Assembly: GCA_016218545.1 (NCBI GenBank)
Contig: JACRDQ010000030.1
Location: 256,172 to 320,171, forward strand
DNA: 64,000 bases
DNA from: Elusimicrobiota bacterium
GTDB lineage: Bacteria > Elusimicrobiota > Elusimicrobia > UBA1565 > UBA9628
Direction: 5' to 3'
Shown here: positions 47,463 through 64,000 of the stretch, in pieces
Layout: every line of letters starts with the position of its first letter
Position numbering within the stretch: position 1 is the first letter of the stretch
Made by a program: the position numbers and the translations under genes
The notes under the pieces: generated by a model
What the model saw: the letters and a program-made list of their open reading frames with translations, nothing else
Told to the model about the DNA's origin: nothing
Databases searched by the model: none

Positions 47463-49192
47463 CGACGGCGCCCGTCGCGGCCCTGCGCTCGAGGACACTC
47501 CGGCTCGGCCTCGTCCTCTCTTGCGCGGCCCTGCTCCCCGCTCCCTGCTCCGCCGGGTGCGACCAGGGCTCCTACGACGCGGCGTACGCCGCCTGCAACG
47601 CCGATCCCCCGGGGCCCCAGTGCGCCCCGGTCTACAACGAGATGCGCTCCGCCTGCGAGAGCGACCTCCAGAAGGCGATCGCGGCCGTGGACAAGTCCAA
47701 GCCCGCGGATAGGGACGCTGCGGTCGAGGCATTGAGCGACCTCCGCATGAAGATCTACTACGACATGGGCGGGTTCAAGAGCTACGGGATCCTGGGAAGC
47801 TCCGGCAAGCACATCACGGTCGGGGGAGAGAGCTTCAACACTTATGCGAACGAGGCGTGGGAACGCGCGGAGAAGACCTTCGACGATCACGGCTACGAGG
47901 TCTCCGATGACGGCGAGATCCTGGCCGGGCCCGGGGACGGCGAAGAGGCCGGCGACCCTGCCGCGGACCAGAAGCCCGGCGCCGCCGGCAAGCCTCGGTC
48001 CGGGGCGCAGGGTGAGGCCCAGCCGCGGAAGGAGCGGGTCGAGGCTCTGCTCGACCAAGGCAAGGCCGCGGAAGCCGAGGACCTGCTCGACGAGCTCCTG
48101 CAAGACGACCCGGAGAACCCGGAGCTCCTCGCCATGAGGTCCGTGGCCAGGCTCAACCAGGAGGACAAGTCGGGCGCTCTCTCGGATGCCAAGGCCTCCC
48201 TGAAGTCCGACCCTGAGAACAAGACCGCCCAGGAGGTGAAGGATTTCATCGAGCTCACGGGCAGAGCGGCCGGGGTGAGCCTCAAGCTCAAGGGGCCCAA
48301 GTGGGAGTCCAAGGACATGGGCTCCAGGTTCGACGGGAGCGGCGGGGACGGGGCGGCCGGAGCCGGCGGCAAGCTCATGGCCGGCGGAGGCTGGCGGAGC
48401 GGCGGCCCGAGCCGGGCCTCGGGCGGAGGCTACGACGCGGTGGACGCCGGCGGGTCAGGCTGGTCCGCCACGGGGAGCGGTCCCGGAGCAGGGGCCTATG
48501 CCCCGGGCGCGCAGGCCACCCTGCCCATGTCCCAGGGCCTGACCGGCTCGCAGGTGCTCGTGCGCGAGGCGCGCAAGAAGCTCAGGCTCGGGGACCTGAG
48601 CGGCGCCTTCCTCGAAGCCGCCCGCGCCCTGCAGGCCGACGCCAGGAACCCCGCGGCCTGGACCACGCGCGCCGCGGTGTCGAACAAGCTCAAGAACTTC
48701 GACGCCGCCATCGGCGACGCGACCGAGGCTTTGAAGCTCGAGCCCAAGAACGTGCCCGCCATGCTCGAGCGGGGCTACGCGCAGTACAACATGGGGAACC
48801 TCACGGCCGCGCTCGAGGACATCGGCTCAGCCATCAAGATCGAGCCCATGAACGCCCTGGCCTACCTCTACCGGGGCATGATCTTCGAGAAGATGACCCG
48901 CTACACCGAGGCCCTCGCGGATTACGAGACCGCGGCCCGCCTGGACCCCACGCTCCGACAGTTCTGGGAGGATGCCAAGACCCGCCTCCTGGGCGGCGGC
49001 AAGGGCAAGGGCAAGACCGGCCCAGGGGCGCGGAGGCCCGGCCGCGGGCTCTTCTGGCTCATCCCCTCGGGCCTCTCCCTGCTCATCCTCGTCATCTTCA
49101 TCCGCAGGAGGCTCAAGGAACGTGCGCAGCCGGCGGCGGAACCCGAGCCTCCGGCCGGGGCCGAGCCCGGCCAGCCCAAAGACGAGTCCTGA
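47459..49192 (+). CDS. Membrane-anchored TPR protein with a signal peptide, Cys-rich N-module, TPRs and a C-terminal TM helix (paralog 1 of 3)
   Basis: The ATG overlaps the cyclase stop (ATGA). C-terminal TM LFWLIPSGLSLLILVIFIRRR. Confidence 0.7.
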   Translation: MTTAPVAALRSRTLRLGLVLSCAALLPAPCSAGCDQGSYDAAYAACNADPPGPQCAPVYNEMRSACESDLQKAIAAVDKSKPADRDAAVEALSDLRMKIYYDMGGFKSYGILGSSGKHITVGGESFNTYANEAWERAEKTFDDHGYEVSDDGEILAGPGDGEEAGDPAADQKPGAAGKPRSGAQGEAQPRKERVEALLDQGKAAEAEDLLDELLQDDPENPELLAMRSVARLNQEDKSGALSDAKASLKSDPENKTAQEVKDFIELTGRAAGVSLKLKGPKWESKDMGSRFDGSGGDGAAGAGGKLMAGGGWRSGGPSRASGGGYDAVDAGGSGWSATGSGPGAGAYAPGAQATLPMSQGLTGSQVLVREARKKLRLGDLSGAFLEAARALQADARNPAAWTTRAAVSNKLKNFDAAIGDATEALKLEPKNVPAMLERGYAQYNMGNLTAALEDIGSAIKIEPMNALAYLYRGMIFEKMTRYTEALADYETAARLDPTLRQFWEDAKTRLLGGGKGKGKTGPGARRPGRGLFWLIPSGLSLLILVIFIRRRLKERAQPAAEPEPPAGAEPGQPKDES

Positions 49193-49213
49193 AGCATTTG
49201 ATATGATGGTCGG

Positions 49214-50872
49214 ATGAGGTCCCAAGCCTCGTTGTTTTCAAGGGGCTCCCTTGCTGGACTCATCTCCGCGTGCGTCGTCGTGCCTTCTTTCGCGGCGACC
49301 TGCACCATGGAGAGCTTCTCCTCGGCCATCGGCTGCGTGTGCAGGCGTGACCTCCCGCCGGGATGGGAAAAGCCCTTCGATTGCACGGCCTGCCTCCAAG
49401 GGGTCGAGCGGCTTCGGGCCGCGTGCGAGCAGGAGTACGAGCAAGGCATGGAGAAGGTCCAGGCTGCCAAGACCCCCGCGGAGGTCGAGGCTCAAAAGGA
49501 GGACCTCTATCGGGTTGCTGAGGTCGCGAGCAGAGGCGACATCGCCTTTGACGGCCGCCAGGAGAGGGGGAGGGTCCTCGAGGACCTTGTGCTGGTGGAG
49601 AGCATCCCCGAGCCCCATCAGGTCACGGCGGACATCAACGATATCCAGCAGGGGTTGGTGGATAAGGCCAAGAACGCCCAAGTGGAAGACAAGAAGATCG
49701 AGCCGGACCCCAGCGCTCTTGAAGCGAGGAATAAGAGCCTGGGCTTGGCCATGGACTTCCTGGGGGGGGCGAACATCGCCTTGGGCGGCAAGGATTCCGA
49801 CGGCGCGGTGGAGAGGACCGAGGCGGAGAGGACCGAAGCCGTGAGGACGGAGCAGGCCAAGAAGGACATGGAGGCGGGAAACTCCGAGGCTGCCGAGAAG
49901 TCCGTTGACCAGGCCCTGGCCTCGAACCCTAAGAACCGCGAGGCCCGCGAGGTCCGGGCCCTGGCGCGGATGAACCAGGGCAAGAACGAGGAGTCTCTCG
50001 CGGACGTCCATGAACTGCTCAGGCAGGATCCCAAGAACCAGGTCGCGCTCGACATGAAGACCTACATCGAGTCCTCAGGCCGCCTGGCAGGCAAGACCCT
50101 GAGTCTCAAGAGGCCTGATTTCGGAGGCCATGCCTCGAGAGAGGGTCTGGAAGCGGGTCTTGCCGCTGCCCTGCCTGGCGCCGAGGGCCGTTCTGGCCCT
50201 GGCACGGCCGAGGACGCGGTCCAAGCCGGGGGCCGGTCCTACCGCGGCACCCTGCCCTTGTCGCAGGGGCAGACCCAGGCCCAGGTTCTGGCCAGGGGAG
50301 CCGCCAAGAAGCTCAAGATGGGAGACTTGAGCGCGGCCTTGCTCGAGGCCACGCGCTCCATCAGGGCGGACAAGGGGCATGCCCCGGCCTGGGCCCTGCG
50401 CGCGGCTGTCGCCAACAAGCTCGCCAGGTACGACGCCGCCCTGGCTGACGCGACCGAGGCCCTCAAGCTCGAGCCGGACAACGTGACCGCGCTCCTGGAG
50501 CGGGGCTTAGCCCAGTACGGCATCGCCAACTACGCGGCCGCGCTCGAGGATGTCAGCCGCGCCCTGGCGCTCGAGCCCATGAACGCCCTGGGCTACCTGT
50601 ACCGCGGCATGATCTTCGAGAAGCTCTCCCGGTACAGCGAGGCCCTGTCCGACTACGAGACGGCCGCGCGCCTGGACCCGACTCTGCGCCAGCTCTGGGT
50701 GGACGCCAAGGCGCGCCTCTCGACCGGCAAGGAGACCTCGGTCCGGCGGGGGATCTCCTCGGAGACCGTGGCCTGGCTGGCCTGCGCGGCAGCTCTGGCA
50801 TCGGCAGCAGGCCTTGCCGCGGCCCTGGTCGTGACGCGCAGGAGAGTCCGGGCAGAGGAGAGCCCCTCATGA
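49214..50872 (+). CDS. Membrane-anchored TPR protein (paralog 2)
   Basis: Same architecture as paralog 1. The conserved C-terminal block reads EPMNALGYLYRGMIFEKLSRYSEALSDYETAARLDPTLRQ, against EPMNALAYLYRGMIFEKMTRYTEALADYETAARLDPTLRQ in paralog 1. Confidence 0.7.
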   Translation: MRSQASLFSRGSLAGLISACVVVPSFAATCTMESFSSAIGCVCRRDLPPGWEKPFDCTACLQGVERLRAACEQEYEQGMEKVQAAKTPAEVEAQKEDLYRVAEVASRGDIAFDGRQERGRVLEDLVLVESIPEPHQVTADINDIQQGLVDKAKNAQVEDKKIEPDPSALEARNKSLGLAMDFLGGANIALGGKDSDGAVERTEAERTEAVRTEQAKKDMEAGNSEAAEKSVDQALASNPKNREAREVRALARMNQGKNEESLADVHELLRQDPKNQVALDMKTYIESSGRLAGKTLSLKRPDFGGHASREGLEAGLAAALPGAEGRSGPGTAEDAVQAGGRSYRGTLPLSQGQTQAQVLARGAAKKLKMGDLSAALLEATRSIRADKGHAPAWALRAAVANKLARYDAALADATEALKLEPDNVTALLERGLAQYGIANYAAALEDVSRALALEPMNALGYLYRGMIFEKLSRYSEALSDYETAARLDPTLRQLWVDAKARLSTGKETSVRRGISSETVAWLACAAALASAAGLAAALVVTRRRVRAEESPS

Positions 50873-53259
50873 ACCGCCGCCTGCTGCTGGCCTGCCTCAT
50901 GCTCGCCTGGGCCGGGACCGCCCGGGCCGAGTGCAGCAGGAAGGCCTACACGGAGATGAAGGACTGCGAGGTCACAGCCGCGGGGAGCCATGTCGTCAAG
51001 AATCCGGACGGCACCCAGACCACGGTGGCGGACTACGACAGCAGCGCGTGCCTGCGACTCGTGGGCGACGTGGCGGACGAGTGCGGCGAGGCCTATGACA
51101 AGGCCCTCGAGGTCCTCAAGACGGCCAAGACCGAGGCTGAGATCAGCGCAAGCGAGGCGAAGCTCAAGGAGATCGCGGACATCGTCAAGGACGTCAAGAC
51201 CATCAAGGGCGTCACTCAGGACCCGAAGAACCCGCTCATGCCCTTGTCCGAGTTGGCCGAGCTGGACACCAGCGTCATCCCGGACGCGGTCAACGCGGCC
51301 AAGGAACGCCTCAAGGCTCCAAGCGTCGGCGGAACCCCTGACCCCAACGCGGTCCCTGGCCCGGCGCTGCCGCCGGTCCAGCAGGTCAGGGACCTCATCG
51401 AGGATGGGGACACCGCGGCCGCCCTGGACAAGCTCGACGGACTCATCGGGCCCGGCACCCAGGACCCGGACCTTTTCTCCATGCGCTCCTGGGGCCTGGC
51501 CAGATCCGGGGACCGCGCGGCCGCGCTCAGGGACGCGGAGGCTGCGCTCCAGCTCGACCCGAAGAACGAGCTCGCGGGCCAAGTCAAGGCTTACCTGGAG
51601 TCAGCGGGGAGCATGGGCAAGTCCAGGGTCGAGCTCAAGGCCCCGGATTTCTCGGGCCTCTCGTCCTCGAAGGGCAAGGACTCCTCGGCATGGCTCCAGG
51701 AGGGAGGGGCCCCTTCCGGAGGAGAGTGGATGTGGGGGAGCGGAGGAGCGGGCGCTCCGCCCAGGCCCGGGGGCGCCGCGGCCCAGGCCGCAGGCGCGGT
51801 CGGGCCGGCCGAGCCGCTGCTCAAGAGTTCCATGGCGAAGTTCCGCGTGGGCGACCTCAACGGAGCCCTCCTCGACGCCACGCGCGCGCTCCAGGCGGAC
51901 AAGTCCGACCTTCGGGCCCGGGCCATCCGGGCCGCCGTGGCCAACCGCCAGAAGAACCACGAGGGCGCGCTCTGGGAGGCGGGGGAGATCCTCAAGACCC
52001 ATCCCAACAACGTCCCGGCCTACCTGGAGAAGTCCCTGGCCGAGTACGGGCTCCTCCAGTACGACGCCGCGCTCGCCGACGTCGCGACCGCGTCCAAGCT
52101 CGACCCTTCCAATGCCCTGGCCAGGGTGTATGAAGGCATGATCCTCGAGAAGACCGGACGGGATGCAGAGGCGTTCGCGGCCTACGAGAGAGCGGCCGGG
52201 CTCGACTCCGGCATGGCCCGCTGCCTTGCGGACGCACGCAGCCGGCTGGAGCCCGGAGAGGCTCCGCAGGGCTTCGACTGGAAGAGACTGGCGCGTTGGG
52301 GCGGGCCCGTCGGCCTGGCCCTGGCTTTCGTCATCACCGGCGCTTGGTGGCGCTCCTCCGGCCCGGGCGCTGCTGCGGCGGGGGCAGGGACCGCGCCCCA
52401 GTCCTTTCCGGCGCGCGCAGCGGAGGGCCTGCGGACCTCAGCGGCCACGGTGGCCCAGGCTCCGGAGGGGGCCCTGCTGGCCGGGACGTACCGCGTGGTG
52501 CGGGAGCTGGGCAGCGGAGGCATGGGCGAGGTCTACGAGGCCGTCGACGAGAAGCTCCAGCGGTCCGTGGCGCTCAAGCGTCTCAAGAGGCAGGCCTATG
52601 CCTCGCCGGAGCTCAGGGACCGCTTTTTGAAGGAGGCGCGGCTCGTGGCCAAGCTGCGCCACCCGCACCTGGCCGAGATCTTCACCGTGGCCGGGGACGA
52701 GGAGCTCTACCTGGTCTTCGAGCTCGTGCAGGGAGAGGCCCTGGACAAGACCCTGTCTCGGCGCGGCCGCCTGGGGCTCGACGAGGCCCAGAGGATCGTG
52801 GGCGAGGTCTGCTCCGCGCTCGAGTACGCGCACGACGAGCATGTCATCCACCGGGACCTCAAGCCCTCCAACATCATGTTCGACGGCGAGGGCCGCGCCA
52901 AGGTCATGGATTTCGGCATCGCGCACGAGGCGCGGGGCTCGGCCGACCTGACGCAGACCGCCGCGTGGGGCACGCCTCCTTACATGGCTCCCGAGCAGGA
53001 GGGGGGCCGCGTGGGCCGCGAGTCGGACCTCTACGCCCTTGCCGTGATGGCCTACGAGATGCTCACCGGCAGCCGTCCCTTCCCCGGCCCCTATTTCCTG
53101 GAGAAGAAGCTCAAGAAGCAATACCCGGCTCCCACCGCGGTCAACGGCACCCTGCCGAGGTCCGTGGACGCGTTCTTCGCCAAGGCCCTTGAACCCGAGC
53201 CGGAGAAGCGCTACCGCACCGCGGCCGAGTTCGCGGCCGCGTTCCGCGGCCTTGCTTGA
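50869..53259 (+). CDS. TPR ectodomain (paralog 3), TM helix, and cytoplasmic Hanks-type Ser/Thr protein kinase
   Basis: Kinase subdomains LGSGGMGEVY, VALK, HRDLKPSN, DFG and APE. The N-terminal half is homologous to the two preceding genes. Confidence 0.85.
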   Translation: MNRRLLLACLMLAWAGTARAECSRKAYTEMKDCEVTAAGSHVVKNPDGTQTTVADYDSSACLRLVGDVADECGEAYDKALEVLKTAKTEAEISASEAKLKEIADIVKDVKTIKGVTQDPKNPLMPLSELAELDTSVIPDAVNAAKERLKAPSVGGTPDPNAVPGPALPPVQQVRDLIEDGDTAAALDKLDGLIGPGTQDPDLFSMRSWGLARSGDRAAALRDAEAALQLDPKNELAGQVKAYLESAGSMGKSRVELKAPDFSGLSSSKGKDSSAWLQEGGAPSGGEWMWGSGGAGAPPRPGGAAAQAAGAVGPAEPLLKSSMAKFRVGDLNGALLDATRALQADKSDLRARAIRAAVANRQKNHEGALWEAGEILKTHPNNVPAYLEKSLAEYGLLQYDAALADVATASKLDPSNALARVYEGMILEKTGRDAEAFAAYERAAGLDSGMARCLADARSRLEPGEAPQGFDWKRLARWGGPVGLALAFVITGAWWRSSGPGAAAAGAGTAPQSFPARAAEGLRTSAATVAQAPEGALLAGTYRVVRELGSGGMGEVYEAVDEKLQRSVALKRLKRQAYASPELRDRFLKEARLVAKLRHPHLAEIFTVAGDEELYLVFELVQGEALDKTLSRRGRLGLDEAQRIVGEVCSALEYAHDEHVIHRDLKPSNIMFDGEGRAKVMDFGIAHEARGSADLTQTAAWGTPPYMAPEQEGGRVGRESDLYALAVMAYEMLTGSRPFPGPYFLEKKLKKQYPAPTAVNGTLPRSVDAFFAKALEPEPEKRYRTAAEFAAAFRGLA

Positions 53260-53278
53260 ACCACGACGGAGGATCGCC

Positions 53279-54802
53279 ATGAAAGAGACAGCCGAGAAGA
53301 ACGGGACCGCCGGGGGCAAGGACGAGTACGCCCCTCCCAAAGGGTCGGTCACCTCGCACGCGTGCGTGCTGGCCGGCCGCGACCTCGAGTATGAGGCGCG
53401 CGCCGAGTGGCTGGTGCTCCGCAAGAAGGACAAGCCGCACGCCGAGATGTTCCACATCGCCTATCTGGAGAAGGGCAAGGAGCCCGGGGCCCGGCCCGTC
53501 ACTTTCGTCTTCAACGGGGGGCCGGGCGCCGCGTCCGCCTATCTGCACATGGGAGCCCTGGGCCCCTCCCGGGTCGTGTTCGAGCCCGCGGGCTCGGCGC
53601 CCAAGCCTCCGATGCGGCTCGTGCACAACGACGAGTCCTGGCTCGCCTTCACGGACCTGGTCTTCATCGACCCCATCGGCACGGGCTTCAGCAGGATGAT
53701 CGACGAGGAGGACCTCCCGAAGAAGGGGGGCGCCGAGAAGGACGGCAAGGCAGCGGAGGAGAAGCGCGACGAGAAGGAGTTCTACAAGCTCAACCGGGAC
53801 CTCGAGTCCCTGGGCGAGTTCGTCTCCAAGTTCCTCTCCAAGCACAAGAGATGGGAGTCCCCGGTCTTCGTGGCCGGGGAGAGCTACGGGGGCTTCCGCG
53901 CCGCCTGCATGGCCAAGCGCCTGCAGGAGGGCTTCGGCGTGGGCTTGAACGGGGTGGTCATCATCTCCCCTGCCATGGAGTTCACCCCGCTCAACCCCAG
54001 CGACTACGACCTCCAGGCCTGGATGGACGTCTTCCCCACCATGGCCGCGGCCGCGTCCCTGCACGGCAGGTCCAAGCGGTTCGGGCCGGACCTGGGCGCG
54101 GAGGAGGTCGCGAGGGCCGCGGAGGAGTTCGCCTCCTCGAGGATGTACCGCCTGCTCGCCCATGGAGACGCGCTGGCCGAGGACGAGAGCAAGGCGATCG
54201 TCCGCGAGATGTCCGAGATCATCGGCATCCCCGAGGACTACCTGAGGGACGCCTCCGGCAGGATCGCCCACTGGACGTTCTGCCGCAAGCTCTTGAAGGA
54301 CCGCAACCGGGTCTGCGGGCTCTACGACGCCTCCATCACCGCGGTCAACCCCTTCCCGGACCGCGAATGGGAGTTCGGCCCCGATCCGACCCTCTCCGGC
54401 ATCGAGAGGGTCTTCGCCGCCGGGATCAACACGCACCTGAGGAAGAACCTGGCGCTCGACTCGGAGCGCGACTACCATCTGCTCAGCGAGGAGGTCAGCA
54501 AGTCCTGGCAGGACGACCGCCAGCAGCACTTCTTCATGAGGCAGATCGGCGCGACCGACGAGCTCCGCTACGGCATGGCCCTCAACCCCCACATGAGGGT
54601 CTTCATCACGCACGGCTTCTACGACCTCGTGACCCCGTGCTGCTCCTCGAGCAGGCTGGTCCGCCAGATGCGGCTCGACGAGTCCCTGAGGGAGAACCTG
54701 ACCTTGAGGCACTTCAGGGGCGGCCACATGTTCTACACCTGGGAGGAGTCTCGCAAGGCCTTCAGGGCCGCCATGGCCGCCTTCTACGCTTCCGCGGTCT
54801 AG
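53279..54802 (+). CDS. Peptidase S10 (serine carboxypeptidase)-like protein
   Basis: FVFNGGPGAASAYLHMGALGP resembles the S10 NGGPGCSS block, and VAGESYGGF the GESYxG nucleophile motif. GGAGG SD. Confidence 0.65.
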   Translation: MKETAEKNGTAGGKDEYAPPKGSVTSHACVLAGRDLEYEARAEWLVLRKKDKPHAEMFHIAYLEKGKEPGARPVTFVFNGGPGAASAYLHMGALGPSRVVFEPAGSAPKPPMRLVHNDESWLAFTDLVFIDPIGTGFSRMIDEEDLPKKGGAEKDGKAAEEKRDEKEFYKLNRDLESLGEFVSKFLSKHKRWESPVFVAGESYGGFRAACMAKRLQEGFGVGLNGVVIISPAMEFTPLNPSDYDLQAWMDVFPTMAAAASLHGRSKRFGPDLGAEEVARAAEEFASSRMYRLLAHGDALAEDESKAIVREMSEIIGIPEDYLRDASGRIAHWTFCRKLLKDRNRVCGLYDASITAVNPFPDREWEFGPDPTLSGIERVFAAGINTHLRKNLALDSERDYHLLSEEVSKSWQDDRQQHFFMRQIGATDELRYGMALNPHMRVFITHGFYDLVTPCCSSSRLVRQMRLDESLRENLTLRHFRGGHMFYTWEESRKAFRAAMAAFYASAV

Positions 54803-54826
54803 CCTGTGGTAGAATAGAGTTCGGAC

Positions 54827-56104
54827 ATGCGCGCGCTCCTGCTCTGCCTTGCCGGCTTCCTGGCCGGACCTGCCCTGGCCGCCGAGTGGCCGCCCGAGGT
54901 CCCGGAGTGGGCCAGGCTGCGCGTGACGGCGCCCAAGGCCGCGGGCTCCGAGTGTCCGCCCGGCTCGCCGCGCCGCAGGCCGGTCCGGACCCTGTCCGAG
55001 GAGCCCTCCTTCGAGGTCAAGGAGCTCAAGCCCTGGGCCGAGGTGCCCCTGCCCCAAGACGACCTGGCCGCGTCCTCGGCGGTGGAGGCGGCGGAGAAGA
55101 CCCGCGCCTACTGGGCCGCCAGGCCCGGAGACGAGAAGGTCGCAGTGGGAGGCCTGACCTACACCGCGGCGCACATGGTCCGGAGCTTCTCTGCCCTGGC
55201 CGCGCTGCTCTCCCAGGGCCTGCCGGCCAAGGAGCTCAAGGCGCGGCTCGAGCGGGACTTCGACGTGTACCAGGCGGTCAAACCCGACGGCGGCCTCTCA
55301 GGCACCATGACCGCGTACTACGACCCGGAGATCCCCGTCTCAGGCGTGGGCCAGGCCGGCGTGCCCATCCACGCCAGGCCCGCGGACCTCGTCCGGGTGG
55401 ACCCTGCCTCGGGCCTGTCCTTCGACTGGGGCAGGCCCGACGGTCACGGCGGGCTCGCGCCTCACGCCTCGCGCAGGGAGGTCGACGCGGGCGCGCTCGC
55501 GGGCCAGGGGCTGGAGCTCTACTCCACGAGGCACCCGACCGACCTCCTCAACCTCCAGACCGAGGGCTCGGGCTGGGGCGTGCTCCCGGGCGGCCGCAGG
55601 GTCCGCCTGGCCTTCAACGGCGCCAACGGCCACGTGTTCAAGTCCGTGGGCAAGACCCTCATCGACTGCGGCCTCCTCCCGGCCGGCACCGGCTCCTTCG
55701 CCATCCTCGACTATCTCAAGTCCCAGACCCTCGAGCGGGAGCTGGAGCTCGTGGGCTTCAACCCGCGCTACGTCTACTTCAAGGAGGTCGCCTCGACCGG
55801 CGGGCCATGGGGCGCCACCGGAGTCGAGCTCGTGGCCGGCCGCTCCGTGGCCTCGGACCCCAAGCAGGTGCGCCTCGGCCTGGCCGGCATCCTCGTGTCC
55901 CGCAAGCCGGTCGCGGCCGAGGACGGGACCTTCCAGGGCTTCTCGGACTTCACGCGCTTCGTCTTCACCCACGACGTGGGCTCCGCCATCCGGGGCCCGG
56001 TCCGGCTCGACGTGTTCTGGGGCCGCGGGGCCAAGGCCGAGTCCGAGGCGCACCGCATGCTGTTCCCGGGCAAGCTCACCATCATCGTCCTCAAGCAGCG
56101 CTAG
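54827..56104 (+). CDS. mltA: Membrane-bound lytic murein transglycosylase A
   Basis: Signal peptide. TAYYDPEIPVSG resembles the MltA domain. The C-terminal 3D domain has FVFTHDVGSAIRGPVRLDVFWG. Confidence 0.7.
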   Translation: MRALLLCLAGFLAGPALAAEWPPEVPEWARLRVTAPKAAGSECPPGSPRRRPVRTLSEEPSFEVKELKPWAEVPLPQDDLAASSAVEAAEKTRAYWAARPGDEKVAVGGLTYTAAHMVRSFSALAALLSQGLPAKELKARLERDFDVYQAVKPDGGLSGTMTAYYDPEIPVSGVGQAGVPIHARPADLVRVDPASGLSFDWGRPDGHGGLAPHASRREVDAGALAGQGLELYSTRHPTDLLNLQTEGSGWGVLPGGRRVRLAFNGANGHVFKSVGKTLIDCGLLPAGTGSFAILDYLKSQTLERELELVGFNPRYVYFKEVASTGGPWGATGVELVAGRSVASDPKQVRLGLAGILVSRKPVAAEDGTFQGFSDFTRFVFTHDVGSAIRGPVRLDVFWGRGAKAESEAHRMLFPGKLTIIVLKQR

Positions 56105-56284
56105 CCTGGAATCCCCAGTTGGACGCGGGATTCGACGAAGGCTGCCGGGACATTTCTATGCAAAATCTCGCGACCGTAGCTACGGCTACGCTCGCGAGAT
56201 TTTGCGTCGACCTGTCCTCGGCATCCTTCGTCTCGGTCCACGCGCCAACTGGGGATTCCAGGCTAGCCGAGGAGCGGCTCTTCA
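56100..56284. repeat. Roughly 185-bp long inverted repeat with 23-bp perfect outer arms (gctagcctggaatccccagttgg), imperfect inner arms and a palindromic centre (cgtagctacg)
   Basis: Read directly from the sequence. It lies between the convergent mltA gene, whose stop falls inside the left arm, and the minus-strand gene ending at 56308. Confidence 0.7.
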
Positions 56285-56307
56285 CAAGAAGAGTCTGTGG
56301 ATAACTC

Positions 56308-56955
56308 CTAGGGCTGCTGCGGAGCGGGCACGGGCGCGGAGACCTTGCGCAGGATCTCGTCGGCCTCGCGGTGGCTGTCGCGGATGTCGCGCTCGACGTC
56401 CGCGGAGTACCGGGAGATGTCCCAGGCCTCCATGGAGAAGCCCGCGCGGCGGATGTCCCACTCGGCCCAGCGGGCCTCGCTGGCCAGCCAGCCGATCTCG
56501 CTCTCGGTCCAGGTGAAGGAGTCCGTGAAGCGGCGGGCCGATTGGATCTGCCCCGGATCGGGGCGGGCCTGCATGGCGAGGCGTTCTGCGTCCATGCGCA
56601 CGCGCTGGACCGCCCACTGCAGGTCCCGGAGGGCCCACACCGCGCGGTTGAGGTCGTTGCGGAAGAAGGGGTCGTTGTTCGGCTGGCCCGGCTGGATGCG
56701 CTGGGCGCGGCGGCGCAGGTCCTGCAGGTCGGACTTCAGGCGCTGGGCCGTCCACTGGAAGCCGCGCACGTCGGAGGCGAGGCGGTCGAGGTCATAGGCG
56801 GCCTGGAGGTTCTTCGCCTCGATGCGTTCGGCCTTGGCGGCGAGGATGTTCGCGCGCAGTCCGGTCAAGGCGGCCTCGAAGCCCGGCAGGGCCGGGACCA
56901 CGGCGGCATGGGCCGAGCAGGTCAGGGATACGAGCAGGGTAGCGACGAGCATCAT
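56308..56955 (-). CDS. Hypothetical secreted protein
   Basis: MMLVATLLVSLTCSAHAA is a signal peptide. Its ATG overlaps the stop of the upstream kinase (ATGA). Confidence 0.5.
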   Translation of the reverse strand: MMLVATLLVSLTCSAHAAVVPALPGFEAALTGLRANILAAKAERIEAKNLQAAYDLDRLASDVRGFQWTAQRLKSDLQDLRRRAQRIQPGQPNNDPFFRNDLNRAVWALRDLQWAVQRVRMDAERLAMQARPDPGQIQSARRFTDSFTWTESEIGWLASEARWAEWDIRRAGFSMEAWDISRYSADVERDIRDSHREADEILRKVSAPVPAPQQP

Positions 56956-58145
56956 GGACGTCCTCCTTGGGGTAGGGCCGAGGGGCCCTCGGGGTCGGGC
57001 TGACGCGGAGCGGCCGGGACGGCCGCCGCCAGAGGGATCGTGAAGGAGAAGGTAGCACCCGCCCCGGGATGGGACTCCGCCCAGATGCGGCCGCCGTGCA
57101 GCTCGACGAGCGAGCGGCAGATGTTGAGGCCCAAGCCGAGGCCCTTGTTCTGCTGCCGGTCGGCGTCCTCCTGATAGAAGCGGTCGAAGACGTGCGGCAG
57201 GCCCTCGGGAGAGATGCCCTTTCCCGTGTCGCGCACCTGGAAGCGCGCGAAGGCGCCCTCGCGGCACAGCGAGATGGTCACCGAGCCGCCTTCGGGGGTG
57301 AACTTCATGGCGTTGCCCACGAGGTTGGCGAGGATCTGGTGGAGGCGGCCGTCGTCGGCCCGCACGGTCAGGCCTTCCCCGGCCCGGGCGTCGAGCTGCA
57401 GCTCGATGCCGCGGCGGCCGGCCTCGAGCTTGGAGTTCTCGAAGGCGTCGCGGACCGCGCGGGCCGCGGAGAGCTCGCCGCGGTCGAGCTCGACCTTGTG
57501 CTGCGCCAGCCGGGTGGACTCGAGGAGCTCCTCGAGGAGCACGGAGAGCCGCTCCGCGTTCCTGTTGATGGACTCGAGGTTGCGGCGGAGCTCCGCGGGG
57601 TTCTGGTCCTCGGCCTTCTGCCTCAGGAGGAAGGTGCTGTAGCCGTAGACCACGGTGAGGGGGTTCTTGAGCTCGTGCGAGGCGTCCTGGATGAGCTGGG
57701 TCTTGGCCTCGAGCTGGCGCTGGACCTTCTCGAGCATGGAGGTCTTCTGCAGCAGGGCCTTGTTGAGGCGGAAGTGCTCCATGCCGCGGCGGACGGCGGC
57801 GAGCATGGCCTCGGTGTGCACGGGTTTGTTGATGTAGTCGTAGACGCCCTCGCGCAGGGCCTCCATCGCGGAGTCCACCGAGCCGTGGGCCGTGACGATG
57901 AGGCCCACGGTCGTGGGGTCGGCCTTGCGCGCGGCCGCGAGCACGTCGAGGCCCGACATGTCCGGGAGGCGCAGGTCCGCGAGGACCATGCACAGGCGCG
58001 ATTGGGCGATGAGGCGGCAGGCCGCGGTCCCCGTCGAGGCGGAGAGGAGCTCGCAGCCTAGGGGCTTCAAGGCGGCGCGGAGGTACTTGAGGAACTCCTC
58101 ATCGTCGTCGACGATGAGCAGGGTCTCGGCTGAGTCGGCGTTCAT
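56952..58145 (-). CDS. Cytoplasmic hybrid protein: N-terminal receiver domain followed by HisKA and HATPase_c
   Basis: REC: LLIVDDDEEFL..MVLADLRLPDMSGLDV..NKP. H-box ASHELKNPLT. N/G boxes NLVGNAMKFT, DTGKGI, GLGLGL. No TM segment. Confidence 0.8.
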   Translation of the reverse strand: MNADSAETLLIVDDDEEFLKYLRAALKPLGCELLSASTGTAACRLIAQSRLCMVLADLRLPDMSGLDVLAAARKADPTTVGLIVTAHGSVDSAMEALREGVYDYINKPVHTEAMLAAVRRGMEHFRLNKALLQKTSMLEKVQRQLEAKTQLIQDASHELKNPLTVVYGYSTFLLRQKAEDQNPAELRRNLESINRNAERLSVLLEELLESTRLAQHKVELDRGELSAARAVRDAFENSKLEAGRRGIELQLDARAGEGLTVRADDGRLHQILANLVGNAMKFTPEGGSVTISLCREGAFARFQVRDTGKGISPEGLPHVFDRFYQEDADRQQNKGLGLGLNICRSLVELHGGRIWAESHPGAGATFSFTIPLAAAVPAAPRQPDPEGPSALPQGGRP

Positions 58146-58267
58146 CTTCAGCAGTAGTGTGGGTCCCCTGACCCTCCCGCGACAGGGCCCATGGGCCCAG
58201 GAGCGGGTGGGACTTTGGTCCCAGGACCCCATCTTACCATATCCCGGGGCCGATGTTGTATAATCAT

Positions 58268-58293
58268 CCGCCGCCTCGTCCCGGCGGCGGACG
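58268..58293 (-). terminator. Stem-loop ccgccgcc/ggcggcgg immediately downstream of the GT9 gene stop, followed by an A/U-rich tract on the minus strand
   Basis: A perfect 8-bp GC stem with a 7-8-nt loop, then auGAUUAUACAACAU. Confidence 0.3.
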
Positions 58294-59331
58294 TCAGGCC
58301 GCGGGCGGGCGGAGGCCGTCGAGGACCGTCCGGAGCGCGGTGAAGGCGTCGTCGACGGAGACGCTCCGGCAGGAGTCCCAGGCCGCCGCGACCAGGCCCG
58401 TGTGCGCCGGCCCTCGCGGCCTCCAGACCTTGTCGGCGTAGCCGGAGTAGAACCCGAAGGTCGGGGTCCCGACGGCGGCGGCCAGGTGCATCGTCCCGGT
58501 GCAGTTGACGACGGCCAGGTCGAATCTGGCCAGCACGGCGGCCGTCACGCCGATGGGGCCGGGGGCGACGAGAGGGACGGCGGCGCCGGTCAGGGCGAGG
58601 ATCTCCCGGACCCGGGCCTCCTCGCCGGGGCCGGCGAGGAAGACGGGACGGACGTCAGGTTCTTTGAGCAGGCGACGGGTCAGGGCCGCGAACTTCTCCT
58701 CCGGCCAGCGGTGGTCGTATTTCTTGAAGTTGCCCGGATGGATGAGGACGTTGCGCTTGTCGGGCAGGACGCCGGCTTCCATCAGCAGCCAGCCGGCGGC
58801 CTTCTCGTGCTCGGGGCGCAGGACCAGCTCGGTCCGATCCTCGAAGACGCCGCCGAACGCCGAAGCGAGGCGGCGGTAGCGGTCGAGCATGTGCTCGGAC
58901 TCCCCGGCCGGGGCGACCTGCCGGGTGAAGGCGGCGTCGAGCCTTCCCTTGCGCAAGGAGAGCTTCTCGGTCGCCCGGGCGAGGAAGGCCAGGGCCGCCG
59001 AGGTCCTGGAGAAGGACGGGTTGAGGTCGATGAGCAGGTCCCAGCGCCGGCCCAGCAGGGAGGCGGCCAGCCGGGCCGTGGCGAGGGGACGGGCGAGGCC
59101 GCCGTGGACCGCGACCTCGTCGACGAAGGGGATGAGACGGGCTGTGTCGGCGCAGCGTTCGCCGACGACGAGCAGGATGCGGGCGCCCGGATGGGCCCGC
59201 CGGAGGGAGCGCAGGACGGGAGTCGAGATGATGAGGTCTCCCACCCTGCCGAGCCAGAGGGCCGCGGCGCTCCGGACTTGCGCCGAGGGCGCAGGGGCCG
59301 AGGCCCCCGAAGACGCGCCGATTCCGTGCAT
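58294..59331 (-). CDS. Glycosyltransferase family 9 (heptosyltransferase-like)
   Basis: GDLIISTPVLRSLRRAHPGARILLVVG is the GT9 N-terminal signature. Start MHGIGASS. Only 16 bp separate it from the divergent efp start. Confidence 0.7.
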   Translation of the reverse strand: MHGIGASSGASAPAPSAQVRSAAALWLGRVGDLIISTPVLRSLRRAHPGARILLVVGERCADTARLIPFVDEVAVHGGLARPLATARLAASLLGRRWDLLIDLNPSFSRTSAALAFLARATEKLSLRKGRLDAAFTRQVAPAGESEHMLDRYRRLASAFGGVFEDRTELVLRPEHEKAAGWLLMEAGVLPDKRNVLIHPGNFKKYDHRWPEEKFAALTRRLLKEPDVRPVFLAGPGEEARVREILALTGAAVPLVAPGPIGVTAAVLARFDLAVVNCTGTMHLAAAVGTPTFGFYSGYADKVWRPRGPAHTGLVAAAWDSCRSVSVDDAFTALRTVLDGLRPPAA

Positions 59332-59347
59332 GGGGTGATTGTAACAA

Positions 59348-59911
59348 ATGATAACGACAGCTGAATTGAAGCCGGGGGTGGTCATCGAGGATGCGGGAGA
59401 GTGGCTGGAGGTCCTCCACGCGCAGCACCACCGCAAGTCCCAGGCCGCGGCCGTCTATCGCGCCACCCTGCGGAACCTCAACACCGGGGGCGTGGTGGAG
59501 CGGTCCTATTCCTCGGGCACCAAGTTCAAGGAGATCCCGGTCAACCGCCGGGAGAAGTCCTACATCTACGACGAGGGCGAGAACGGCGTGTTCATGGACC
59601 TCGAGACCTACGAGCAGGTGTCTTTCCCCAAGAAGAAGCTGGGAGAGCAGGCGCGCTTCCTCAAGGAGAACCTGCAGGTCCTGGGGGTCTACATCAACAA
59701 CGTGCTCGCCGCCATCGAGCTTCCGGCCAACGTGGTGCTCGTCGTGACCTCCACGGTCCCGGGCGTCAAGGGAGACTCGGTCTCGAACATGGTCAAGCCC
59801 GCGACCCTCGACACGGGCCTGGAGATCAACGTCCCGCTCTTCATCAAGGAGGGGGACAAGATCAGGGTGGACACCCGGACCTGCCAGTACGTCGAGAGGG
59901 TCAGAGAATAA
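59348..59911 (+). CDS. efp: Elongation factor P
   Basis: 187 aa. KPATLDTGLEINVPLF..VDTRTCQYVERV. Confidence 0.9.
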   Translation: MITTAELKPGVVIEDAGEWLEVLHAQHHRKSQAAAVYRATLRNLNTGGVVERSYSSGTKFKEIPVNRREKSYIYDEGENGVFMDLETYEQVSFPKKKLGEQARFLKENLQVLGVYINNVLAAIELPANVVLVVTSTVPGVKGDSVSNMVKPATLDTGLEINVPLFIKEGDKIRVDTRTCQYVERVRE

Positions 59912-59915
59912 GGCC

Positions 59916-60611
59916 GTGATCAAGGCCGTCATCTTCGACGTCGACAACACGCTCACCGACTTCATGAAGACGAAGCGGGCGGCCGTGGATTCGGCCGTGG
60001 ACGCCATGATCGGCGCGGGCCTGCGGGTCGAGAAGGCCTCCATGGTCGAGAAGGTCTTCGAGATCTACTGGAAGGACGGGGTCGAGGACCAGCGCATCCT
60101 CGACAAGGTCCTCCTCAAGGAGCTCGGCCGCATCGACTACAAGATCCTCGCGGCCGGCATCCTCGGCTACCGCCGCGCCAAGTCGGGCTCCATGACCCTC
60201 TACCCCAAAGTCGAGATGACCTTGATCGAGCTCACGCGCATGGGCGTCCGGATGGGGGCCCTCTCGGACGCTCCGAGGCTGGAGGCCTGGCTGAGGGTGG
60301 TGGGCCTCGGCCTGCACCATTTCTTCGAGCACGTGGTGACCGCCGAGGACGCGGGCGCGCGCAAGCCCGCGCCCGAGCCCTTCCGCAAGGCCCTCGAGCT
60401 CCTGGGCTCCAAGCCCTCCGAGACCCTCATGGTCGGAGACTGGGCGGAGCGCGACGTGGCCGGGGCCAAGAGGCTGGGCATCCGCACCGCCTGGGCCAAG
60501 TACGGGGACACCCACGACACCCAGGACTCGGGGGCCGAGTTCGTGCTCCAGGACATCCACGGGCTCGTGGACATCATCCGCAGGGAGAACGGCGCCCGCG
60601 CCAAGGTATGA
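59916..60611 (+). CDS. HAD-superfamily hydrolase
   Basis: GTG start. VIFDVDNTLTDF is HAD motif I. MVGDWAERDVAGAKRLG is motif IV. Confidence 0.7.
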   Translation: MIKAVIFDVDNTLTDFMKTKRAAVDSAVDAMIGAGLRVEKASMVEKVFEIYWKDGVEDQRILDKVLLKELGRIDYKILAAGILGYRRAKSGSMTLYPKVEMTLIELTRMGVRMGALSDAPRLEAWLRVVGLGLHHFFEHVVTAEDAGARKPAPEPFRKALELLGSKPSETLMVGDWAERDVAGAKRLGIRTAWAKYGDTHDTQDSGAEFVLQDIHGLVDIIRRENGARAKV

Positions 60612-62221
60612 GGTCTGCTTCAGCGGTGTGGTGGGCGTGCGTCGTCTCAGCCGTGCTTCCGAGCCTTTCCTGGGCCATCCGCGTCGAGACCCTGACCGGG
60701 GTCCTGGCGGACGGGAGGCCCGTGGAGGTCGTGGCCGGCCAGGTCCTGGTGCGCTTCTCCACGGCCGCGGCTCACGCCCAGGCCCGGGCCGCGGCGCTCG
60801 AGAGCAGGGGCGGCCGCGACCGCGGGAGCGTGGGCGGGACGGATTGGGCCCTCGTGGACCTGCCTCCGGGCATGAAGGTCAGCGAGGGTCTGGGCTGGGT
60901 CAAGGCCCTGCCTGGCGCGCTCGCAGCGGAGCCCAACCATGTCATGCGGCCCAACAGGACCCCCAACGACCCGATCGTCTCCTCGCAGTGGGCCCTGAGG
61001 GCGGTCAATGCCTTCGGAGCGTGGGAGTATGAGACAGGAGGCTCCTCCCGGGTCACGGTCGCGGTCATCGACGCGGGCATCGACGCTGTCCATCCCGACC
61101 TGAGCGGCAAGCTCGTGGGCACGAGCCGCTTCTACGACCCTGACCTGGGCGACGGGGACCAGAGCGGGGTCAACCAGCCTCCGACTCCTGCCTGCAACCA
61201 CGCCACCCGCGTGGCGGGCGTGGCAGGCGCCTCCTCGGACAACGGGCTGGGCATCGCGGGCATGTCCTGGGGCGCGGGGCTGCTGTCCCTCAAGGTCTTC
61301 GAGGACAACGACTGCGACCTCACCGACTCCGGGTGCGGGCTCAGCGGGTGCGCCACCTCGATCGCGGCCGTGGTCGCCGCCCTCAACTACGCCAGGACCC
61401 TCCACAACACCGCGGCCATCGGCAAGATCGTGGTGAACATGAGCATCGGCGACGCCGTGACTTGTCCCGGGGCCCTGCAGGCCGGCGTCACCGACGCGGT
61501 CAACGACGGGCTCCTCCTCGTGGCCTCGGCCGGCAACGACGGCAGCGGCGTGATGTCTCCGGCCAACTGCACGGGAGTCATGCCCGTGGGAGCCACGGAC
61601 GAGAACAACGCGGTCGCTTCCTTCTCCTCGCGCGGCTCGGCCATGGCTTCCTACGGCCTGGTGGCCCCGGGCGTGATCGTGGTGACCTCGACCTTGGGCG
61701 ACACCTACGCGGGCGCGACCGGCACTTCCTTCTCCGCTCCCATGGTATCGGGCGCCGCTGCCCTGGTCTGGTCCGCCAGGCCGGAGTTCACGGCGGAGCA
61801 GGTCAAGCAGACCCTGAGGCTTTCCGCGGACAACATCGGCGCCATGGGGTTGGCGAGCGTCGGGTCACGGGTCATGGGCGATGCGAGCGGGGCAGGCAGG
61901 CTCAACGCCTTCCGGGCCATGCGCCTGGCCGTGAGAGGCACGCTCGCGGACTTCGAAGGCGACGCCAAGGCCATCGCGTTCCCGAACCCCTTCCGTCCCG
62001 GGGCCGACGGCCAGACGACCCTCACGGTCCCGCTCGAGGTCCAGGGGAGCCGGCTTTCCATCAAGGTCTACGACGCGGCCGGCAGGCTCGTGCGGGAGTT
62101 GAGCTCCACGAGCTGGGACGGCAAGAACACCGCGGGCGCGCGGGTGGCCTCCGGGGTCTACACCTTCTTCGTGAGCACGGACAAGGGCTCGGCCCTGGGC
62201 CGGCTGACCGTGGTCCGCTAG
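60608..62221 (+). CDS. Secreted subtilisin-like serine protease (peptidase S8) with a C-terminal beta-sandwich sorting-like domain
   Basis: Asp: VAVIDAGID. His: NHATRVAG. Ser: GTSFSAPMVSGAAAL. The C-terminus FPNPFRPG..GVYTFFV resembles FlgD-Ig/T9SS-type tails. Confidence 0.85.
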   Translation: MRSASAVWWACVVSAVLPSLSWAIRVETLTGVLADGRPVEVVAGQVLVRFSTAAAHAQARAAALESRGGRDRGSVGGTDWALVDLPPGMKVSEGLGWVKALPGALAAEPNHVMRPNRTPNDPIVSSQWALRAVNAFGAWEYETGGSSRVTVAVIDAGIDAVHPDLSGKLVGTSRFYDPDLGDGDQSGVNQPPTPACNHATRVAGVAGASSDNGLGIAGMSWGAGLLSLKVFEDNDCDLTDSGCGLSGCATSIAAVVAALNYARTLHNTAAIGKIVVNMSIGDAVTCPGALQAGVTDAVNDGLLLVASAGNDGSGVMSPANCTGVMPVGATDENNAVASFSSRGSAMASYGLVAPGVIVVTSTLGDTYAGATGTSFSAPMVSGAAALVWSARPEFTAEQVKQTLRLSADNIGAMGLASVGSRVMGDASGAGRLNAFRAMRLAVRGTLADFEGDAKAIAFPNPFRPGADGQTTLTVPLEVQGSRLSIKVYDAAGRLVRELSSTSWDGKNTAGARVASGVYTFFVSTDKGSALGRLTVVR

Positions 62222-62568
62222 TGGAGGCCTTCGACGCTGCCCGCGGCCGCACCGTGGCCTCCCGGGTCGTCAAGGCCGAGGCCCTCCTCGACCGCATGCG
62301 AGGCCTGCTGGGCAAAGACTCCCTTCCCGAGGGCGAGGGGCTCTGGATCATCCCCTGCCCTCAGATCCACACCTTCTTCATGCGCTTTCCCATCGACGTC
62401 CTCTTCCTCGACCGCGGCCTCAAGGTCGTGCTGGTCAAGGAGCGCCTCGGGCCCTGGCGGCTTGCGCCCTGGCTGCCGTGGACCTGCGACGCGCACAGCG
62501 TGCTCGAGCTGGCGGCCGGGGCGCTCAGGGGCTCGGTCGAGGTCGGCGACCGGCTGGAGTTCCGCTGA
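62221..62568 (+). CDS. DUF192 (COG1430) family protein
   Basis: LWIIPCPQIHTFFMRFPIDVLFLDRGLKVV matches the DUF192 core. The GTG start overlaps the S8 stop (TAGTG). Confidence 0.55.
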   Translation: MEAFDAARGRTVASRVVKAEALLDRMRGLLGKDSLPEGEGLWIIPCPQIHTFFMRFPIDVLFLDRGLKVVLVKERLGPWRLAPWLPWTCDAHSVLELAAGALRGSVEVGDRLEFR

Positions 62569-62589
62569 CGGCTTGCGACATTGAACCGG

Positions 62590-62671: not shown

Positions 62672-64000
<1,329 letters not shown>

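Follow-up and report, generated by a model that had tools for sequence, protein, structure and literature searches.

Insertion sequences of the IS1380 family begin with CC at their termini and duplicate 4 to 5 bp of target DNA (ISfinder). ISEcp1, one of the members, makes 5-bp repeats (PMC6061673). Small non-coding elements of other kinds can become part of the transcripts of their hosts. Correia/NEMIS elements of Neisseria and RUP elements of Streptococcus pneumoniae are co-transcribed with their neighbours, and their RNA stem-loops have been proposed as RNase III targets that modulate mRNA levels (PMC2229807). The ends of RUP match insertion-sequence ends (PMC2229807).

The window analyzed here, a 64,000-nucleotide stretch of DNA from a member of the Elusimicrobia, a phylum with almost no genetics, carries a long hairpin at the end of its mltA gene. 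This hairpin is most probably a 158-bp non-autonomous MITE with IS1380-type ends, inserted into the CTAG that contains the mltA stop codon. An element of this sort is an ordinary kind of feature, though the MITE group to which it belongs appears to be undescribed. The result is mainly one of annotation, in that an odd 168-bp palindrome is explained and the ORFs called inside it are recognized as spurious.

The hairpin at the end of mltA

The initial annotation described a 185-bp inverted repeat (56100 to 56284) between convergent genes. The gene arrangement is as stated, with mltA (54827 to 56104, plus strand; Pfam MltA and 3D domains) running toward an ORF of 215 amino acids (56308 to 56955, minus strand). 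The product of this ORF begins with a segment like a signal peptide and matches no family in Pfam or NCBIfam, and the ORF keeps the same position in two related genomes (L001 and L002). The inverted repeat is real, but its length and right end needed correction: it ends at 56267 and thus spans 168 bp (56100 to 56267). Bases 56268 to 56284 do not pair with anything left of 56100, and belong to the region of a small hairpin, GGCTCTTC-acaa-GAAGAGTC (56276 to 56295), in the 41 bp of native spacer that remain. The convergent gene pair may originally have been terminated by this small hairpin.

The 168 bp consist of the element proper, two copies of CTAG and one chance G...C pair. The 23-nt outer arms were correctly called perfect, as 56100 to 56122 pairs with 56245 to 56267 at 100% complementarity; the figure of 23 arises because an 18-bp terminal inverted repeat, the duplicated CTAG and the chance G/C pair are read together. 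The inner arms are imperfect and bulged, also as described. The internal body of the element (56123 to 56244) is an imperfect palindrome in which 56134 to 56147 pairs with 56219 to 56232 at 93%, 56148 to 56180 pairs with 56185 to 56217 at 85%, and the apical loop is TACG (56181 to 56184). Aligned with its own reverse complement, the element is 82% identical over 172 columns.

RNA fold prediction, which the initial annotation had suggested as a check, yields a single full-length hairpin on either strand. The minimum free energies are -142.2 and -139.1 kcal/mol for the two strands (z = -16.2 and -15.1), and none of 200 shuffled sequences folded as well. Folded as DNA, the inverted repeat reaches -79.4 kcal/mol (z = -18). 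Two further points of the first description are borne out: the structure is far larger than a normal intrinsic terminator, with about 74 base pairs rather than 5 to 15, and no T-run that could encode a U-tract follows either arm. The ORFs suspected there of being spurious are mechanical frames across the hairpin, one of 64 aa on the minus strand (56091 to 56285) and one of 104 aa on the plus strand (56202 to 56516). The element contains no transposase gene, and its concatenated six-frame translation matched none of 5.8 billion proteins at E <= 1.

The MITE proper occupies 56105 to 56262, is 158 bp long with CC...GG termini, and has no coding capacity of its own. Its left terminal inverted repeat, CCTGGAATCCCCAGTTGG (56105 to 56122, plus strand), is a perfect 18-mer that recurs with 18 of 18 matches as the right terminal inverted repeat (56245 to 56262, minus strand). 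The right terminus together with the next two bases reads CCTGGAATCCCCAGTTGGCG. Copies of CTAG flank the element at 56101 to 56104 and at 56263 to 56266, both given on the plus strand. The last three bases of the left copy are the mltA stop codon TAG (56102 to 56104), which lies within the left arm of the inverted repeat as first noted. Since the left target copy keeps the stop codon intact, the C-terminus of the MltA protein is unaltered by the insertion. The GC content of the element is 60%, compared with 69.8% for the window, and this is a foreign composition.

The size of the element, well under 500 bp, its terminal inverted repeats and its lack of a transposase gene are those of a MITE, as are the flanking target duplication, the existence of filled and empty sites, and termini related to those of insertion sequences. 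The insertion would have occurred into a CTAG made up of the TAG stop of mltA and the base before it, which ends the last Arg codon, and would have duplicated CTAG or, at minimum, its central TA. CTAG is palindromic, so the length of the duplication can be read as either 2 bp (TA) or 4 bp (CTAG).

Empty sites and dispersed copies

At the corresponding site, the element is missing from three related genomes of Elusimicrobia. Their MltA proteins are 80% (L001), 70% (L002) and 78% (L100) identical to that encoded in the window. Ordinary short terminator hairpins take the place of the element in the spacers of L001 and L002, and in L001 this is a textbook intrinsic terminator, AAAAAAAACCGCCCGCGGGA...TCCCGCGGGCGGCTT. 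With 162 bp deleted from the window, the site reads ...CAGCGCTAGCCGAGGAGCGGCTCTTCA, which aligns with the empty site of L001, ...CAGCCGTAGCCTAAGAAGCTCTCCA.

The source of the window is a metagenome-assembled genome (MAG), a type of assembly in which a palindromic mis-join could produce a hairpin of this kind. We regard such an artefact as exceedingly improbable: the sequence on either side of the element is collinear with two related assemblies made independently, the contig of 320 kb continues beyond the element in both directions, and related elements occur in independent assemblies.

Contigs from groundwater metagenomes carry related copies of the element at loci unrelated to this one. One complete copy of 165 nt (L010, 1238 to 1402) is 69% identical to the window element over 171 columns. 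It lies between unrelated co-directional genes on a contig of 54% GC, and it also folds into a full-length hairpin (-85.7 kcal/mol, z = -11.6). Its left flank is TTAA and its right flank CTAG, with no clean 4-bp duplication. The two copies have in common the arm-specific blocks GGATTCGACG in the left arm and GGACCGAGACG in the right arm (as reverse complement). A left end adjoining a tRNA-Gln gene (L007, 3041 to 3091) is 92% identical to the L010 copy.

Small elements with the same termini are also present in several proteobacterial MAGs, some of them with 5-bp target duplications. The wider group with these termini includes elements of 163 bp (L067), 132 bp (L064), and 109 and 235 bp (both in L073), a 239-bp element with a perfect 5-bp duplication, TTGAA (L017, identical to L069), and a 22-bp footprint flanked by TTTAA (L059). 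In one Gammaproteobacteria MAG, a single locus holds three such elements within 2 kb. Scanning metagenomes, genomes and viral contigs for the 18-mer gave 88 loci, most of which were chance or coding matches. The coding matches included a conserved gene of Acidobacteria and, in L085, the NWGFQ motif of an FtsW/RodA-like gene. A 23-mer that included the flanking GCTAG, and thus target bases outside the element, matched nothing in the genome collection. Only chance matches came from degenerate subterminal patterns in viral contigs and from blastn searches of plasmids with the whole element and a 30-nt terminus, where a Vibrio match was inspected and dismissed. A literature search on the terminus sequence and on MITEs in Elusimicrobia brought up nothing specific.

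Of the origins first suggested, the MITE reading is thus the one that agrees with a site filled here and empty in three relatives, with copies at unrelated loci, and with insertion-sequence-type termini beside a target duplication. The REP-like reading, in which a REP/REPIN-type element would have been moved by a RAYT (IS200/IS605-like) transposase, is very improbable. A long hairpin in an intergenic spacer and GTAG/CTAC motifs near its centre would suit it. REPINs, however, occur at high density and make no target duplication, whereas the window element has a flanking duplication, termini resembling those of a DDE insertion sequence, and no second copy in the 64 kb, even with 3 mismatches allowed (0 expected by chance). 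The initial annotation had also held that a single-copy element with no transcription signal would favour a plain bidirectional terminator. That rule was too strict, as this element is single in the window and yet belongs to a dispersed family.

A host-evolved bidirectional terminator or mRNA-stabilizing hairpin could in principle have arisen in place. The position between convergent genes and the extreme stability of the hairpin on both strands would fit such an origin. Canonical terminators are not enriched in the window (6 found, 6.0 expected), which may mean that this organism depends on hairpins lacking a U-tract. The evidence against it is broader. The short GC-rich stem and U-tract of an intrinsic terminator are missing here, with no U-tract on either side; three relatives lack this hairpin and have short ones in the corresponding spacer; the contexts of homologues are unrelated, the L010 copy lying between co-directional genes and the L007 copy next to a tRNA gene; the ends are of insertion-sequence type and flanked by a duplication; and the GC content is below that of the host. 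An in-place terminator origin is already largely refuted, and we give it little credence.

Terminal sequences and the CTAG target

The identity of the transposase family is suggested by the ends of the element. Its right end matches the right end of an IS1247-like insertion sequence, CCTGCATTCCCCAAGTGGCG, at 16 of 20 positions, and all of the IS1380-family ends that we retrieved begin with CC, like the termini of the element. ISSp1, ISPa33 and ISBdi2 are flanked in the pattern CTAG-CC...GG-CTAG, and IS1247-clade copies on long contigs are flanked by 5-bp duplications. The combination of CC termini with a 4-bp or 5-bp target duplication, which is typical of IS1380, is found at the window element (CTAG), at L017 (TTGAA) and at L059 (TTTAA). 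The duplication lengths do differ, with CTAG at the window copy and 5 bp at the other elements that have the same terminus. The element is placed in the IS1380 family putatively, from the similarity of its ends and from its target pattern.

A MITE of the IS630/Tc1-mariner type, which would duplicate TA and prefer TA within CTAG, is the next possibility to consider. The flanks of both complete copies can be read in this way, as GC-TA-GCCTGG...CCAGGC-TA-GCC in the window and as TT-TA-ACCTGG...CCAGGC-TA-GG in L010. The IS630 family does duplicate TA, IS630 prefers TA in CTAG (PMC2170065, referring to Tenzen and Ohtsubo 1991), and pneumococcal RUP is a precedent for a MITE mobilized by IS630 (PMC2229807). 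Nevertheless, the same 18-bp terminus is found with 5-bp duplications directly beside CC and no adjacent TA, both in L017 (TTGAA-CCTAG...CCAGG-TTGAA) and in L059 (TTTAA-...-TTTAA). The match of 16 in 20 positions to an IS1380-family end also speaks against IS630, as does the CTAG-flanked arrangement of IS1380-family members themselves. We therefore consider an IS630-type origin unlikely.

If the element is a MITE with IS1380-type ends, an IS1380-family DDE transposase would have moved it in trans, probably by binding the CCTGGAATCCCCAGTTGG ends. Such an enzyme could have been encoded elsewhere in the genome or in the community. No IS1380-family transposase (Pfam PF13701) is encoded in the 64-kb window or in the environmental loci examined. 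Searches of 185,579 species genomes, the metagenome collection, plasmids and viral contigs turned up no full-length insertion sequence whose terminus is identical to this 18-mer. In a protein search with the IS1247-like transposase, the best 120 relatives were 86 to 96% identical to the query. One transposase type (P0042) was set aside as partner because its ends match the window terminus at only 12 to 13 of 20 positions. An ISKra4-family transposase encoded 215 bp from the L010 copy has no terminus in common with the element. Where solo ends occur in L059 and L054, the neighbouring ORFs are not transposases but recN, acetyltransferase and MFS genes.

The distribution of CTAG may account for the position of the element. 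The window contains 17 CTAG sites where 97 to 178 are expected, an approximately six-fold under-representation, and 10 of these sites share bases with stop codons. With CTAG scarce and most of the surviving sites at stop codons, an element that seeks CTAG will be steered to gene ends, which explains its location at the mltA stop. In other words, where CTAG has been purged from a 70%-GC genome, the targets left for such an element are largely amber stop codons. Stop-codon CTAGs are also naturally safe landing places, since insertion restores the stop.

Conservation of the hairpin and comparison with known elements

After insertion, the element would lie in the 3′ untranslated region of both convergent transcripts, and its RNA would be expected to form a very stable hairpin of about 74 base pairs. 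Such a hairpin might terminate transcription, stabilize the mRNA or be cleaved by RNase III.

The hairpin could itself be the functional product, if the locus encoded a structured non-coding RNA. Such an RNA might be an sRNA, an antisense regulator or a precursor processed by RNase III. Pairing has indeed been kept where the sequence has changed: in 12 base pairs, both partners differ between the window copy and the one in L010 and still pair, with 0 to 3 such pairs in controls with slid partners and none of 500 shuffles reaching the observed values. This covariation, however, comes from two complete sequences only. Near-perfect long palindromes can be re-symmetrized by template switching during replication, a process known as quasi-palindrome mutagenesis that requires no selection, and this could account for the kept pairing. 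Other observations also run counter to a dedicated RNA gene. The suggestion of a structured RNA gained no credible match in Rfam, where the best, MIR8622, a plant microRNA precursor, scored 51.7 bits (gathering threshold 197) and all others had E above 1; the MIR8622 match is due to hairpin shape only. No promoter-like site was found in positions 48000 to 64000, and copies of the element occur in varied contexts. A dedicated RNA gene is accordingly a poor candidate.

A separate question is whether the full-length hairpin of the MITE is under selection, which we consider doubtful. The L010 copy, 69% identical to that of the window and from a host of different GC, has arm-specific asymmetries in common with it, yet 12 inner base pairs have changed on both sides and still pair. 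If the pairing reflects function rather than replication-driven re-symmetrization, the MITE subfamily of these copies would constitute a structured module that is portable. The module could be a bidirectional terminator that is independent of a U-tract, a 3′-end protector or an RNase III site, and by targeting stop-codon CTAGs the element would deliver it to gene ends. Alternatively, a DNA hairpin or cruciform may be required by an IS1380-family transposase. The symmetry kept between diverged copies could serve to test a role as portable terminator or in RNA stability.

Intrinsic (Rho-independent) bidirectional terminators resemble the window element in being GC-rich hairpins between convergent genes. 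They differ from it in stem length (5 to 15 base pairs instead of about 74) and in having the U-tract that is missing here on both strands, and the element has a mobile origin. Correia/NEMIS and RUP are, like the element, small (about 100 to 155 bp) and non-coding; they have terminal inverted repeats and lie mostly in intergenic DNA. They differ from the element in duplicating TA, with a link to IS630 in the case of RUP, and showed no sequence similarity to it. They reach about a hundred or more copies per genome, compared with one copy of our element in the 64-kb window.

YPAL (RU-2) of Yersinia is close in form. It is about 168 bp long, is not AT-rich, has a predicted long hairpin and lies near gene ends (PMC2229807). 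It is co-transcribed with upstream genes, has an ORF across the element, and shows filled and empty sites between relatives (PMC2229807). YPAL makes duplications of 3 to 26 bp and has internal inverted repeats, whereas the window element has a CTAG duplication and terminal repeats.

Finally, the IS1380 family (IS1247, ISPa33, ISSp1, ISBdi2, ISMex4 and ISEcp1) has CC-starting termini like those of the element, with 11 to 12 of 20 positions identical between the ISPa33 end and the element's right end. The flanking pattern of ISSp1, ISPa33 and ISBdi2 is that of the window element, and the 5-bp duplications of the IS1247 clade and ISEcp1 are those of the sister elements L017 and L059. A MITE group with IS1380-type ends is thereby recorded in Elusimicrobia, in groundwater metagenomes and in several proteobacterial MAGs. 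Compared with IS1380 insertion sequences of about 1.6 to 1.7 kb, the element has 158 bp and no transposase gene, and its whole body is one imperfect palindrome.

Insertion of a hairpin element at the mltA stop codon

The hairpin downstream of mltA is an insertion. Gene order (peptidase S10, mltA, a small convergent ORF, a response-regulator/histidine-kinase hybrid, a family 9 glycosyltransferase) is common to the window and two MAG contigs of Elusimicrobia relatives, L001 and L002, and this hairpin is missing downstream of mltA in three relatives (L001, L002 and L100, with MltA 80%, 70% and 78% identical to that of the window). The direct repeat GCTAGCC stands at both ends of the element (56100-56106 and 56262-56268), and removal of 162 bp leaves ...AAGCAGCGCTAGCCGAGGAGCGGCTCTTCA, which aligns to the empty site of L001, ...AAGCAGCCGTAGCCTAAGAAGCTCTCCA, with the stop codon at the same place. 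The element is 60% GC, against 69.8% for the window.

As the initial annotation had it, the hairpin is flanked by convergent genes: mltA (54827-56104, + strand; Pfam MltA and 3D domains), whose product matches MBI5623945.1, encoded on a 320-kb contig of an Elusimicrobia MAG, at 100% identity, and a 215-aa ORF (56308-56955, - strand) whose N-terminus resembles a signal peptide and which matches no Pfam or NCBIfam family. The position of this ORF beside mltA is kept in L001 (227 aa) and L002 (217 aa). Farther along, the response-regulator/histidine-kinase gene has at its 5′ end a 37-nt palindrome with overlapping arms (58160-58223, 76% complementary).

The mltA stop codon does fall within the left arm (TAG, 56102-56104). 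The left target copy retains CGC-TAG, so the MltA C-terminus reads ...LKQR, as in relatives, and mltA is left intact by the insertion. CTAG is scarce in the window, with 17 sites observed against 97 expected from a first-order Markov model or 178 from base composition alone (examples at 5094, 8061, 22287, 29073, 35854, 54799, 56101, 56308 and 62218). Of all 17, ten overlap a stop codon and another two are the flanks of the element itself. Most surviving CTAGs thus mark gene ends, and a CTAG-seeking element would here be steered to genes ending in C-TAG.

Without the element, the spacer would be only ~41 bp long and would hold a small hairpin at 56276-56295, GGCTCTTC-acaa-GAAGAGTC, with GAGGAG/CUCUUC as another pairing in the predicted fold and no U-tract. 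This small hairpin may have served the two convergent genes as their terminator before the insertion. In the closest relative, L001, the orthologous spacer (11378-11764) is 387 bp long with a canonical bidirectional terminator at about 11678-11722, and that of L002 is 108 bp with two short hairpins. The L001 spacer also contains a 15-nt inverted pair (11526-11540 and 11607-11621), and its Rfam hits are all sub-threshold.

Architecture of the inverted repeat and its dispersed relatives

An inverted repeat of 185 bp ending at 56284 had been described; the arms pair only to 56267, giving 168 bp. The rest of that description holds: perfect 23-nt outer arms (56100-56122 and 56245-56267), imperfect inner arms (56134-56147 with 56219-56232, 93%; 56148-56180 with 56185-56217, 85%) around a 4-nt TACG loop (56181-56184), and no T-run after either arm. 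The 23-bp perfect arm consists of the 18-bp terminus, the 4-bp palindromic duplication and one chance G/C pair. The element is 82% identical to its own reverse complement over 172 columns. RNA fold prediction, suggested as a check, returned one full-length hairpin on either strand (-142.2 kcal/mol on + and -139.1 on -, z of -16 and -15, with 0 shuffles equally good), and the DNA fold reached -79.4 kcal/mol (z = -18). The ORFs called inside were spurious, as suspected, since the frames crossing the hairpin are mechanical only; the element is non-coding. No credible Rfam family was found, the top score being 51.7 bits to a plant microRNA precursor model with a threshold of 197.

No second copy of the 23-mer or the inner 18-mer occurs in the window with up to 3 mismatches (chance expectation 0.00-0.06), and the exact 23-mer, a pattern that includes target bases, had 0 matches in 185,579 species genomes. 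The 18-mer CCTGGAATCCCCAGTTGG was scanned in metagenome, genome and viral collections. The majority of its matches were chance or coding, and true relatives were singled out by local BLAST, an nhmmer profile and a fuzzy terminus search. The 18-mer recurs by chance in the ...ASNWGFQ... motif of an FtsW/RodA-like protein (L085, 7474-7491) and in conserved coding sequences at many Acidobacteria loci (e.g. L020, L026, L039). Exact 18-mer matches should not be counted as element copies.

The nearest relatives are on two Hainich groundwater contigs. L010 carries a complete 165-nt copy (1238-1402) that is 69% identical to the window element and likewise folds into a hairpin over its whole length (-85.7 kcal/mol, z = -11.6). 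Its contig has 54% GC, and the copy is bordered by a methyltransferase gene on one side and an ISKra4-family transposase gene on the other. L007 carries a left end cut by the contig end (3041-3091), which shares 92% identity with L010; a tRNA-Gln gene lies 69 nt away.

Beyond these, a broader group of small elements has the terminus in common and a different interior: 163 bp in a Zetaproteobacteria MAG (L067, flanks ATCAA and ATAAA), 239 bp in Sedimenticola (L017, identical to L069; TTGAA|CCTAG...CCAGG|TTGAA) and 132 bp in Cellvibrionales (L064). In a 38%-GC Gammaproteobacteria MAG (L073, 479-2013), complete 109-bp and 235-bp elements and a solo end form a local cluster sharing the terminus within 2 kb. 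A Zetaproteobacteria MAG (L059, 3205-3236) has, shortly after an N-acetyltransferase gene, a 22-bp remnant, CCTG+CCAACTGGGGATTCCAGG, with the 5-bp direct repeat TTTAA on either side; it resembles a footprint of this group, either collapsed or from a solo end. The element is a member of a dispersed family, and a setting that varies from copy to copy agrees with a mobile element rather than with a dedicated terminator.

Termini, target and candidate transposon family

An IS630-type reading, with TA duplication, was initially favoured, as it is compatible with the flanks of the window and L010 copies, and IS630 prefers TA inside CTAG (PMC2170065). It fails on the sister elements, where TTGAA (L017) and TTTAA (L059) are 5-bp duplications abutting the CC terminus.

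Members of the IS1380 family generally have termini starting with CC and duplications of 4 or 5 bp, a combination that suggested this family here. We took annotated family members from plasmids and read their ends directly. The CC start was present in ISEcp1 (CCTAGATTCTACGT and CCTAAATTCCACGT; its left end and 5-bp repeats are confirmed in PMC6061673), in the right end of an IS1247-like element (CCTGCATTCCCCAAGTGGCG), in ISPa33 (CCCGGATTTCTCATGA), and in IS1678, ISSp1, ISBdi2 and ISMex4. The window right end, CCTGGAATCCCCAGTTGGCG, is identical to the IS1247-like right end at 16/20 positions, a match with a binomial probability of ~4e-7 for one anchored comparison, about twenty ends having been compared. 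CTAG|CC...GG|CTAG flanks ISSp1 (L108, 322-1967), ISPa33 (L109, 397-1957) and ISBdi2 (L107, 330-1959), each with a perfect CTAG duplication exactly like the window element, and ISMex4 (L110, 313-1927) is flanked by CTAG and TTAG. Copies of the IS1247 clade from long metagenome contigs (L112, L114, L116) instead carry the AT-rich 5-bp duplications TTGCA, ATTAT and TTCTT, so the IS1380 family has two target behaviours. Because its termini and target are like those of these reference elements, the window element fits the IS1380 type, as judged from sequence.

An IS1380-family DDE transposase acting in trans would have moved the element. Neither the window nor the environmental loci retrieved encode such a transposase, and no full-length element with the exact window terminus was found in species genome, metagenome, plasmid or viral collections. 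The best 120 IS1247 relatives listed are 86-96% identical to the IS1247-like transposase query; the ends of one IS1247-related type, P0042, match the window terminus at only 12-13/20 positions, and it was rejected as partner. Next to the L010 copy, at a distance of 215 bp, are a DUF6788 ORF and the ISKra4-family transposase gene (NCBIfam score of 215.7 bits against a cutoff of 205), at 1617-3107 on the - strand. No terminus in common was found, so these genes look like neighbouring mobile DNA, not the partner. The original suggestion of a MITE is borne out by the insertion, the dispersed relatives, the IS1380-type ends and target, and the lack of coding content.

Conserved pairing and possible roles of the hairpin

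Arm-specific differences (GGATTCGACG left, GGACCGAGACG right) are common to the window and L010 copies, so the two arms were already distinct in their common ancestor. Between these copies, 12 pairs of the inner stem changed on both sides with pairing kept, compared with 0-3 in partner-slid controls, and 0/500 shuffles reached the observed values. Selection on a hairpin, in DNA or in RNA, could account for this conserved pairing. So could template switching during replication, which is known to re-symmetrise quasi-palindromes; the covariation comes from two sequences, too few to choose between these explanations.

Canonical terminators are not enriched in the hairpin's part of the window, so it is possible that the hairpin acts as a terminator. 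Both convergent transcripts would run into the element, yielding double-stranded RNA of ~74 base pairs, which may halt RNA polymerase, obstruct 3′ exonucleases or draw RNase III. Similar effects have been put forward for Correia elements and for YPAL (PMC2229807).
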